Below are positions 13,962 to 40,117 of a stretch of DNA of 64,000 nt, piece by piece (the stretch's first letter is position 1; each line of letters starts with the position of its first letter). The stretch spans positions 39,790 through 103,789 of the forward strand of contig NZ_JACUUB010000003.1 of the NCBI RefSeq assembly GCF_014859525.1. The letters run 5' to 3'. The stretch is from Marinobacter sp. (GTDB taxonomy: Bacteria; Pseudomonadota; Gammaproteobacteria; Pseudomonadales; Oleiphilaceae). Position numbers and translations under genes: made by a program. The notes under the pieces are model-generated. The model made no database searches. It saw nothing but the letters and a program-made list of their open reading frames with translations, and had not been told where the DNA came from.

Positions 13962-14124
13962 AAAGGCAATTTCCGGGTTAGGGCCGAGTCTGTCTTGAAT
14001 CCCGGCACATTTAACAGTTTACGGTCGTTATAGAAACCGGATTCTATGGGTGCCCTTTTCCATGGGTCAATACAGCTGATGTTACGGCTGTGACAAGAAA
14101 TGTTAAAAACACCCTTATGCCGAC

Positions 14125-14919
14125 TCAGAAGTGGTCTTTGCCATGGCGGATCGCTGCAAAGATGGCAGTGTCGGAATCGTGAGGTAAGCCTGCGCTGACG
14201 GCGTAGCGACTGGCCGCGTCGATCACCGCTGGATCATCCCACTTCATAAAGGGATTCAGTGCCTTTTCAACCCCAATGGTTGACGGCACCGTGGCTTCAC
14301 CGCGGTTGCGCCGAGCCATGCAGTTTTGTTCAAAGTCAGACAGGTCCGTGTTGTCTGGTAACCAGCTGCGCGCAAATCGTATATTGGCGAGAGTGTACTC
14401 ATGGGCACAGTAGACGGCGGTCTGATCAGGCAGACTGCGAAGCGATGCCAGCGACTGCCGCATTTGTTCCGGTTTGCCTTCAAACAGCCGGCCACAGCCG
14501 CAGACAAACAAGGTGTCACCGCAAAACAGAATCGGACGATCGTTCACTGGTGTATCGCAGAAATAGGCGAGATGATCCAGGGTATGGCCGGGCACGCCGA
14601 TAACCTGAAAGGTCAAATCTCGCCAGATAACTTCATCGCCAGGGTTAATCTGATTCGTTGTGCCTTTAAAGGGTGAGTCTGCCGGACCGGTCACCCGGGC
14701 ATTCGGAAAGGTTTTGATCAGAGCGGCAACCCCCCCGGTGTGATCGGGGTGGTGGTGAGTAATCAGAATGGTGTCGAGGGTTAACTGATTTTGCTCCAGG
14801 TACTCCTGAACGGGCTGGGCCTGGCCGGGGTCAACGATCAGCGCTGCACCGGAGGCCTGGTCGGACAGGCACCAGATGTAGTTGTCAGAGAAAGCGGGAA
14901 TAGCGCTGATATTGAACAT
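14125..14919 (-). CDS. gloB: Hydroxyacylglutathione hydrolase (glyoxalase II)
   Basis: [36 protein letters not shown]. Confidence 0.96.
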
Positions 14920-15045
14920 GATGACCCCATGTGCTCAATGAATGTGCCTGTTATGATAGAGCAACGCCGTGTTTATCCCAAGGTTCGTCCGGAGCCAGGG
15001 GTCTACGCCGGTTCAGGGAACACGCAACCGATGGAGAATGACAGG

Positions 15046-33393: not shown

Positions 33394-33484
33394 GGTGGGC
33401 TGGCAGAGTGGCTTAATGCAGCGGTCTTGAAAACCGCCGACGGTTAATAGCCGTCCCGGGGTTCGAATCCCTGGCCCACCGCCA
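33394..33484 (+). tRNA. serT: tRNA-Ser (anticodon UGA)
   Basis: Acceptor GGTGGGC/GCCCACC, anticodon arm GCGGT-CTTGAAA-ACCGC, long variable arm, GTTCGAATCC T-loop, encoded CCA; divergent from yccA as in other gammaproteobacteria. Confidence 0.98.
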
Positions 33485-38712: not shown

Positions 38713-38745
38713 TTGCAGTCTCCATAGGATGTAACACGAGGAATA

Positions 38746-38773
38746 AGCTTATAAGCAGGTGTGATAATATCAA
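38746..38773 (-). promoter_or_regulatory. Candidate sigma70 promoter of the YeeE pair
   Basis: TTGATA-N16-TAAGCT; the -10 overlaps the palindrome ATAAGCTTAT (38743-38752). Confidence 0.4.
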
Positions 38774-38880
38774 AAAAAGCCCGGCAAGGGATGCCGGGCA
38801 GAGGCGTGCGAGTAGTATCCATGAAAGACTTCCAGACAAACCGACATCAACGGGGATGCCGGTATCAGGAAGTATTGCCC
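38772..38880 (-). ncRNA. Candidate small RNA or attenuator leader (5' hairpin, single-stranded linker, terminator)
   Basis: Hairpin ACUUCC-GAU-ACCGGCAUC/GAUGUCGGU-GUC-GGAAGU (38873-38828), 28-nt linker, GCCCGGCA/UGCCGGGC stem plus U7; no upstream CDS on this strand for the terminator to serve; 5' end uncertain. Confidence 0.6.
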
Positions 38881-38996
38881 ATAATTTGGACAGTTCAAGT
38901 GAGAGCGGCTTTCGTTTGAAAACATTTTTTCATATACCATCAGCGTTTATACTGCGCCCTTTCCCTATGCGGTTTTCAGCGGGGTGATCAGGGGCA

Positions 38997-39064: not shown

Positions 39065-39484
39065 ATGTCTGACAGCGACGATAAACAACCAGAGAATGAT
39101 CCGCAATTGGCGGGTAAGATTAAAGACTCTGCCCGACAAATCTGGTTGGCCGGTCTTGGCGCTTTTACCAAGGCTGAGGAAGACACAGGCAAACTGTTTG
39201 ATCGACTGGTTCAGGAAGGAGAGCAACTCGAATCCCGCACCCGCGGTGTGGTAGAGAAGCAGATTCGAACGGTTGAAGACCGGGTTGGCGAGGTTAAGGA
39301 ACGGGCCACGGGAACCTGGGACCGGCTTGAACATATGTTCGACCAGCGTGTGTCTGGCGCCTTGAGGCGGTTGGGCATTCACCGGCGTGAAGAAATCGAA
39401 TCCCTGGAGCATCGCATTGAAGCGCTTGAGAGTGAACTTGTTCGCTTGCGGGGTGATGCACCGATCCATGATGAAGAAGAGTAG
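39065..39484 (+). CDS. Phasin-family (PhaF/PhaI-like) granule-associated protein
   Basis: SARQIWLAGLGAF.KA.E...KLF..LV.EGE, WDRLEHMFDQRV..AL.RLG; start ATG 39065 after AAGAGGT. Confidence 0.88.
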   Translation: MSDSDDKQPENDPQLAGKIKDSARQIWLAGLGAFTKAEEDTGKLFDRLVQEGEQLESRTRGVVEKQIRTVEDRVGEVKERATGTWDRLEHMFDQRVSGALRRLGIHRREEIESLEHRIEALESELVRLRGDAPIHDEEE

Positions 39485-39487
39485 CGT

Positions 39488-40117
39488 TTATAAATAGCTG
39501 CGACTGGTTAAGCGGATCTCTTGCTGCTCTTCTTCCGCCAGGTAAGGCAGAATCAAGTGCAACATCTGGTACACGCCCTTTCCCGGATCGACCGAATTCC
39601 GGTCATCGAGATGGGATAACGTATCAAAGCTGCTCCAGTAACACGCGGTGAGGGTGAGCTGTTCGCACAGTGATCGCAGTTCGTCTTCGCTGATGGCCAT
39701 CAGACCCTGATGCCTGAAACTTTCACATAAAACCATGAACGCCGTTTTCTTCTTTTTCAGAAGACGACGGAAGCGCACTTGCAATTGACTGTGCCGGGAG
39801 AGCACGTTAACCAAATCCTGGTACATAAAGCGGTAGCGCGCTACCGCTTCAAACAACAGATGGAGAAAAAAGCTGAACTGGTCCAGTGAAATCTCTGCAT
39901 CTTCGGGTACCGCCAACAAGTCCAGAAGTTCTGCTTCATAGCTTTCAAAAAGCTCGTCAACGATGTCGCTTTTGCTTTTGAAATGGTAGTAGAGGTTGCC
40001 CGGGCTGATGTCGAGTTCATCGGATATCAGCAGAGTGGTCACGTTGGGCTCGCCCAGACTGTTAAAAAGCTGAAGGCTGGTGCCGAGAATCCTGTCCCTG
40101 GTTTTAATTTTTTTCAT
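39488..40117 (-). CDS. TetR/AcrR regulator, PhaD-like
   Basis: KTRDRIL..SL.LFN..GEPNVTTL.I.DEL.ISPGNLYYHF. Confidence 0.85.
   Translation of the reverse strand: MKKIKTRDRILGTSLQLFNSLGEPNVTTLLISDELDISPGNLYYHFKSKSDIVDELFESYEAELLDLLAVPEDAEISLDQFSFFLHLLFEAVARYRFMYQDLVNVLSRHSQLQVRFRRLLKKKKTAFMVLCESFRHQGLMAISEDELRSLCEQLTLTACYWSSFDTLSHLDDRNSVDPGKGVYQMLHLILPYLAEEEQQEIRLTSRSYL

Follow-up and report, generated by a model that had tools for sequence, protein, structure and literature searches.

A probable RgsA-lineage small RNA with a replaced seed in Marinobacter and its family

RgsA (P16; Rfam family RF00628) is an RpoS-dependent sRNA of about 120 nt; it has an upstream element (URS), binds Hfq and represses fis and acpP (PMC2375449, PMC3709562, PMC8395346). 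RpoS dependence of its promoter has been demonstrated only in Pseudomonas (PMC2375449, PMC3709562), and Hfq binding only for P16 of P. syringae (PMC3709562). The URS is located upstream of rgsA, and the factor acting on it is unknown (Gonzalez et al. 2008, PMC2375449). In P. fluorescens the RgsA transcript starts (+1) 7 nt after the motif CAATACT (PMC2375449). The Rfam model RF00628 is unusual in that it also covers the promoter, up to 87 nt before the start (Park et al. 2013, PMC3709562), the +1 position being located near model position 88 (PMC3709562).

The locus described here was identified in a 64,000-nt stretch of Marinobacter DNA, which is referred to as the window. Members of Marinobacter are widespread in the sea, degrade hydrocarbons and form biofilms; described sRNAs for this genus were not found in the searchable literature. 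Between positions 38900 and 38772 of the minus strand, a GC-rich hairpin is followed by an unpaired stretch with CAUGGAUA and then by a terminator. Within the same interval CCGGCAUCCC is present twice; CCGGCATCCC is located at 38862-38853 and 38797-38788 (minus), and CATGGATA at 38822-38815 (minus). The hairpin, 28-nt linker, U7 terminator and 10-nt repeat listed in an earlier sequence-only reading are thus all present in the sequence. On folding of a 141-nt stretch, 6+3+9 = 18 pairs, the 28-nt linker and the terminator were obtained with a minimum free energy of -48.3 kcal/mol (z = -5.5 versus dinucleotide shuffles). No coding gene reads into the terminator, the upstream neighbour being a divergent phasin gene on the plus strand, which upholds the earlier statement that there is no upstream CDS to terminate. 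The features of the locus are as follows:

38911..38936, minus strand: URS of the sRNA promoter, TATATGAAAAAATGTTTTCAAACGAA, nearly invariant in 30 Marinobacter species
38893..38898, minus strand: -35-like hexamer TTGAAC (CTTGAA conserved), with CTTGA invariant in 30 species
38871..38877, minus strand: extended -10 element CAATACT of sigma-S type, invariant in 28 of 28 distinct species (alignment A1)
38772..38864, minus strand: predicted sRNA of about 93 nt, with its 5' end predicted at 38864 +/- 2 and its 3' end within the U tract
38840..38863, minus strand: hairpin 1, ACCGGCAUC / GAUGUCGGU, 9 bp with a 6-nt C-rich loop
38800..38839, minus strand: invariant core UUGUCUGGAAGUCUUUCAUGGAUACUACUCGCACGCCUCU, mostly unpaired, in which a weak hairpin 2 is possible
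38827-38806, minus strand: family-wide seed CUUUCAUGGAUACUACUCGCAC, within the core
38772..38799, minus strand: intrinsic terminator, GCCCGGCA-UCCCU-UGCCGGGC followed by U7 (terminator consensus scan)
38712-38275 and 38270-37839, minus strand: two YeeE/YedE-type half-transporter genes, downstream and on the same strand as the sRNA
past both yeeE genes, minus strand: gene for a BLH-type sulfurtransferase/phosphatase-like protein, then the ferrochelatase gene
39067-39484, plus strand: phasin gene, divergent, the upstream neighbour of the sRNA
39488-40117, minus strand: TetR gene, beyond the phasin gene and upstream of the sRNA

The locus shares with RgsA/P16 a URS, a -35 element and a sigma-S-type -10 element CAATACT at similar spacing, a GC-rich hairpin directly at +1 (the stretch from the -10 element to the hairpin reads CAATACTTacaGATACCGG in an RgsA locus, L035, and CAATACTTcctGATACCGG here), a conserved single-stranded stretch that leads directly into a U-tailed terminator with a CCCGG stem, and its occurrence as a single intergenic copy. 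It differs from RgsA in the seed (ACUCCUAAUGGUCUU in RgsA versus CAUGGAUACUACUCGCACGCCUCU here), in the reduction of the long second hairpin and the resulting sizes (about 93 nt versus about 120 nt), in a score below the Rfam gathering score, and in its neighbours, which are phasin and yeeE here and tatD in Pseudomonas. Two other sRNA families are resembled more loosely. Among the sub-threshold Rfam matches, Yfr1 of cyanobacteria (RF01116; 21-27 bits, gathering score 38) came closest for the RNA body; it likewise has an ultraconserved, unpaired motif rich in C and U between two hairpins (ACUCCUCACAC in Yfr1 versus ACUACUCGCAC here). Yfr1 belongs to an unrelated phylum and has a different promoter, and only a resemblance in layout, not homology, is claimed. 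Copies of the RNA from sister genera gave 23-26 bits with sX13 of Xanthomonadaceae (RF02232), with which C-rich (CCCC) hairpin loops are shared; these scores stay below the gathering score of 50 and the C-rich loops are unconserved in Marinobacter. This, too, is a resemblance only.

The promoter of the sRNA consists of the upstream element, TTGAAC and a sigma-S-like -10 element (TCAATACTT). The URS contains the inverted repeat TGAAAA-N4-TTTTCA, which is perfect in Marinobacter, and aligns to the URS block of RgsA promoters both in the Rfam model and in an order-wide profile; when the own genome was searched for a second copy, no other site within 5 mismatches of 23 was found. The CTTGA of the -35-like hexamer, 16 nt upstream of the -10 hexamer, aligns with the CTGGAC of RgsA promoters. 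The -10 element reads (G/T)CAATACTT in context, compared with the RpoS consensus TCTATACTT, and its CAATACT is identical to that of Pseudomonas and order-wide RgsA promoters. The spacing between URS and -10 element is also similar to that in RgsA promoters (34 and 36 nt). In the Marinobacter alignment, the invariant CAATACT is located about 7 nt before the hairpin, a nearly invariant block ATATGAAAAAATGTTTTCAAACGAAA is also found, and the sequence between the conserved blocks and past the U tract varies freely. The combination characteristic of an rgsA-type promoter, a URS together with the sigma-S -10 element CAATACT, is therefore found at this locus, and from the -10 element we infer RpoS dependence of the Marinobacter promoter.

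When the +1 rule of P. fluorescens RgsA and RF00628 was applied, the start was placed at 38864 +/- 2, corresponding to an RNA of about 93 nt that would run from about 38864 to 38772; the transcript is thus probably shorter than the 110-129 nt proposed earlier, the outer stem belonging to the promoter. The 5' strand of this 6-bp outer stem, ACUUCC, is made up of the last bases of the invariant -10 element and of the variable discriminator and is therefore probably outside the RNA. In the 3-bp middle stem of the 18-bp hairpin, one pair is broken in 23 of 28 species. The 18 pairs of the hairpin described previously do fold in this genome, but only the inner 9 bp are kept across species. A 94-nt RNA was predicted to fold into hairpin 1, a weak hairpin 2, an open stretch and the terminator (-34.2 kcal/mol, z = -3.6).

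Hairpin 1 was paired to 98-99% in 28 BLAST-derived and 68 distinct pattern-scan sequences. Among the 68 distinct sequences, 8 of its 9 pairs vary and three change on both sides (2-3 when both sets are counted), and its covariation score was reached by none of 500 shuffles; in other genera of the family the stem is kept with a different sequence. Covariation across Marinobacter, which had been named as a check, was accordingly obtained for the inner 9-bp hairpin and not for the antiterminator helix that is considered below. Hairpin 2 is weak and predicted, and its columns show no variation, so that no covariation signal is possible there. The core contains the anti-start-codon motif CAU and the anti-Shine-Dalgarno motifs CCUCU/CUC. 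The terminator (GCCCGGCA/TGCCGGGC in the DNA at 38799-38779, with T7 at 38778-38772) has a 7-bp stem that is invariant in the 68 distinct sequences, a loop that varies, and a U tract of 6-9 nt.

On BLAST of the intergenic region, all but one of 36 Marinobacter genomes (35) gave a match, and no match was obtained among 24 other families; the element is strongly conserved across Marinobacter. In the most distant species the shared part shrinks to exactly 38773-38899. Promoter, 9-bp 5' hairpin with compensatory changes, unpaired core and terminator are kept in about 150 genomes of Marinobacter and sister genera. The invariant run across the Marinobacter alignment extends over about 50 nt (GGUUUGUCUGGAAGUCUUUCAUGGAUACUACUCGCACGCCUCUGCCCGGC), and the core shows zero substitutions in 26 of 28 distinct Marinobacter species (BLAST), the flanking protein genes being 70-90% identical. 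In a pattern scan with one genome per species, the exact core was present in at least 119 species; its carriers are Marinobacter or MAGs, with Mangrovitalea sediminis as the sole exception. A covariance model, R1, was built from the RNA stretch 38772..38864. It gave 97-121 bits in every sampled Marinobacter genome that has the RNA, and within the family it matched 107 of 151 genomes and 13 of 21 genera. Seven sister genera gave intermediate scores of 31-41 bits, and the 22-nt core block is kept in seven genera besides Marinobacter. When R1 was run on 300 genomes of the order, nothing real was found outside the family; the matches obtained there were ends of coding genes plus terminators and were rejected.

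No Rfam family reached its gathering score with this RNA. RF00628 nevertheless aligned end to end, with 16.8 bits at 38781-38949 (minus; gathering score 88.4), the URS being aligned, CTGGAC being placed against CTTGAAC, and CAATACT matching exactly. This was the best RgsA hit genome-wide, and in a second Marinobacter genome (G195) the same locus was again the best. For comparison, 200 genomes of the order were scanned with RF00628, and RgsA-like loci were found to grade from 195 down to about 20 bits in many families; most of them, and mostly also the sub-threshold ones, keep the seed ACUCCUAAUGGUCUU. An nhmmer profile was then built from 30 order-wide RgsA loci with Marinobacter excluded. With this profile, the present locus was the sole significant hit in the 3.2-Mb genome (E = 2.9e-4; next hit E = 8.1), and all 30 Marinobacter loci were hit at the same relative place (E < 0.01 in 19). 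The alignment extends from the URS into hairpin 1, of which it takes in the first arm and the loop, and does not cover the RNA body, for which no similarity to canonical RgsA was detectable with the profile, with R1 or in the reciprocal search: reciprocal nhmmer with a narrow Marinobacter profile found no RgsA locus, and R1 gave no match to RgsA loci outside the family.

The two ends of this comparison are bridged by the sister genera. Their loci carry the core (G)GAAGUCUUUCAUGGAUACUACUC(A/G)CAC and the -10 element TCAATACTTA; the URS (AAAATATGATTAAAAA) is nearer to that of Pseudomonas, hairpin 1 differs in sequence, and the terminator loop is CCCC, as in RgsA. They gave 24-43 bits with RF00628 over the full model and are the best RgsA hits of their own genomes (E down to 1.5e-8 per genome); in one genome (G357) the same locus was matched with 95 bits by R1 and with E = 4e-5 by RgsA. 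Because the same loci are matched by R1 and RF00628, homology is transitive from Pseudomonas RgsA via the family variant to the Marinobacter RNA. Homology to RgsA loci is thus statistically supported by the profile together with these bridge genera. The canonical RgsA seed was absent from 61 genomes of the genus, in which near-matches were no commoner than those to a control pattern, and no genome of the family contained an RgsA hit above the Rfam cut-off; the variant therefore appears to replace RgsA rather than to be an addition to it. In place of the seed (C/A)ACUCCUAAUGGUCUU, the family has ACUACUCGCACGCCUCU, with 9 of 16 positions identical in an ungapped count by eye. The replaced seed reads CUUUCAUGGAUACUACUCRCAC family-wide, with the invariant block CUUUCAUGGAUACUACUC(A/G)CAC. 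What is known is the RgsA kind of sRNA; what is new is the seed-replaced variant. The suggestion of RgsA/P16 made from the sequence alone hence pointed in the right direction, in that the RNA is a divergent RgsA relative, though below the gathering score.

Several observations on the wider distribution were made in passing. Many families contain RgsA-like loci (L033-L062, L202-L221) that keep the canonical seed yet score far below the gathering score, and among the sampled genera of the order 51 of 111 had an RgsA hit at E <= 0.5, many of them below 1e-10; given so many significant sub-threshold loci with the seed, the curated RF00628 family understates the true distribution. At one locus (L212, G216:C7:61715-61941) promoter and terminator are kept and ACUCCU is lost, and in genus g153 of the same family a 30.8-bit RgsA hit was obtained without an R1 hit (G375:C11:134992-135165); both may be seed-diverged RgsA descendants.

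With regard to the neighbourhood, phasin, YeeE and BLH were found within 1.5 kb in none of 30 rgsA-like loci of other families; the sole neighbour match at rgsA loci of other families was to TetR genes, and this was short and confined to the DNA-binding helix-turn-helix part. All 30 Marinobacter loci have a TetR gene upstream of the sRNA, and TetR-like genes, matching in the helix-turn-helix part only, are found beside rgsA in two other families (L033-L036, L040, L043, L047, L048, L055). A TetR gene adjoining rgsA was also reported in P. fluorescens (Gonzalez et al., PMC2375449). The TetR genes near the sRNA and rgsA may be a coincidence or may encode a candidate URS-binding factor. The phasin gene (39067-39484, plus) is fast-diverging, with tblastn identities of 41-55% within the genus and no tblastn match at E <= 1e-5 in 12 of 30 loci, the adjacent TetR keeping 70-90%. 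For a 179-aa minus-strand ORF antisense to phasin, a Pfam match was not found. The only Rfam match above a gathering score in the window was a tRNA gene at 33394-33481 (plus).

The locus is likely to be a free-standing gene for a trans-acting sRNA of about 93 nt with an rgsA-type promoter, belonging to the RgsA lineage and carrying a replaced seed. An sRNA had been one of two readings offered earlier, and it is well supported by a conserved promoter of its own, an invariant unpaired core, a strong terminator and conservation in genus and family. As part of this best explanation, the RNA would, with similar likelihood, be the RgsA (P16) version of Marinobacter and its GTDB family, with promoter, hairpin position and terminator inherited. 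That it is instead an sRNA unrelated by descent to RgsA, whose sigma-S-type promoter and layout of hairpin, seed and terminator arose by convergence, is unlikely. Such an origin would be in keeping with an RNA body without significant similarity to canonical RgsA, with seeds that differ and with shared synteny not being found, but the likeness extends beyond the -10 element to the URS at the same spacing, and this URS is unique in the genome and not a general promoter element. Moreover, the sister-genus copies align with RF00628 over the full length (hairpin 1, pre-seed stretch and CCCC-loop terminator, E to 1.5e-8), and the two forms are mutually exclusive across genomes. Action as a protein-binding decoy, which would titrate CsrA/RsmA via the GGA motifs CUGGAAG and CAUGGAU instead of base-pairing, is considered very improbable. 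The invariant core does hold two GGA motifs at a distance of 12 nt, one of which, CAUGGAU, is similar to the A(N)GGA binding motif, and the invariant run of about 50 nt exceeds what a pairing seed usually needs; however, only the GGA of CAUGGAU is kept family-wide, the first being changed to GAAAGAC in two genera, and no GacA box was seen upstream. Known Rsm/Csr decoys have many GGA motifs in loops; neither several loop GGAs nor a GacA-dependent promoter was found here. The single-GGA RgsA of P. fluorescens, for its part, did not relieve RsmA-controlled hcnA (PMC2375449). Least probable of all, with a chance close to negligible, is that the region encodes a small protein (56-aa ORF, 38770-38940, minus). 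In most species the core can be read through in one frame, yet there is no Shine-Dalgarno sequence and the candidate starts are located inside the URS; in 4 of 30 species the ORF is interrupted or out of register with the core, and its C-terminal length ranges from 33 to 214 aa; the core is without third-position (synonymous-type) variation; and there is no Pfam match. The small-protein reading was rejected.

The other reading offered earlier was that of a cis-acting leader (attenuator or riboswitch), in which the terminator and an antiterminator formed from the 10-nt repeat would be mutually exclusive and would control read-through into the yeeE-yeeE-sulfurtransferase operon. In its favour, the element is located about 60 nt upstream of yeeE on the same strand, the pairing of GAUGUCGG with CCGGCAUC exists in this genome, and each of 30 species has some gene of the yeeE operon downstream on that strand; some transcriptome-derived contigs also run past the terminator, for which DNA carry-over is a possible cause. 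The repeat, however, is exact in only 1 of 30 species, the longest shared word in the other 29 being 3-8 nt (median 5). The antiterminator helix shows no covariation, 2 of its 8 pairs fail in 12-13 of 28 species, and what remains of it is the self-complementary CCGG core that is common to any two such stems. Energetically, too, the antiterminator falls short of the terminator fold, by 9.3 kcal/mol in this genome and by 10.9 kcal/mol in a typical species. Of 30 species with the RNA, five (L008, L016, L023, L024, L029) lack both downstream yeeE genes. The spacer that follows the terminator measures between about 60 and 160 nt and has a conserved promoter-like motif of its own, relatives of the element adjoin unrelated genes in other families, and no cis-regulatory Rfam family matches. 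The species-specific repeat, the helix without covariation, its energy cost, the yeeE losses and the variable spacer led to the rejection of both the antiterminator and the attenuator for the YeeE run, which are left with a very slim chance. In the spacer, at 38740-38769 (minus), a motif TATTAT...CTTATAAGCTTATTCC with the direct repeat GCTTAT-AA-GCTTAT is conserved in most Marinobacter with yeeE downstream and probably serves the yeeE operon as a promoter or operator of its own.

For the trans-acting sRNA of the RgsA lineage, the following course of action is proposed. The sigma-S promoter would be induced by RpoS in stationary phase or under stress, and transcription would end at the strong intrinsic terminator, whose U tail may bind Hfq and stabilise the RNA. 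The unpaired core could then pair with ribosome-binding regions of mRNAs and alter their translation or stability. The locus shows the features of the Hfq-type sRNA class, namely a promoter of its own, a conserved unpaired seed and a U-tailed terminator, and an hfq gene is present in the own genome; judged by its descent and layout, the sRNA is probably RpoS- and Hfq-dependent. In 12 public RNA runs (transcriptome and metatranscriptome), the region was present on assembled contigs, some at 369x and 564x; these contigs are unstranded and span the promoter and neighbouring genes.

Since the seed differs from that of RgsA, the targets probably differ as well. The start regions of fis and acpP, known targets of RgsA, showed no special complementarity to the sRNA. 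With RNAduplex, about 5,000 candidate regions around translation starts in the own genome were screened, and the top value was -39.6 with the 40-nt core (shuffled seeds -36 to -42) and -27.7 with the 24-nt seed (shuffled seeds -25 to -30), so that no mRNA target in this genome beats shuffled seeds by duplex energy. Three of the top 20 duplex hits were located in or beside the cbpA-cbpM operon (own contig C65, cbpA at 14047-15021). The cbpA site, GCGAGGAGUUCCAUGGA, covers the Shine-Dalgarno sequence and AUG and gave -25 kcal/mol with the sRNA core; the other two concerned cbpM and the next gene on that strand. As a conserved target cbpA was rejected, its 29 orthologues giving -8 to -19 kcal/mol. 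The motif GYGYGAGG recurs in Marinobacter cbpA leaders.

The sRNA is among the most conserved non-coding elements of Marinobacter. Less variation is seen in its 50-nt core than in the adjacent protein genes, which makes this RNA a natural starting point for the study of sRNAs in the genus. Whether the RgsA gene kept its promoter, the position of its 5' hairpin and its terminator while the target-recognition sequence was swapped and then frozen, so that a stationary-phase input became wired to a different regulon, is in our estimate an evenly balanced question; in this account 22 nt would be frozen in the family as a whole and about 50 nt within Marinobacter. If it is true, the unusual length of the invariant stretch would point to several target sites that overlap or to a further protein partner. 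The locus offers a clean natural example of seed replacement under a conserved promoter, in which regulon rewiring is testable by comparison of Pseudomonas and Marinobacter targets.
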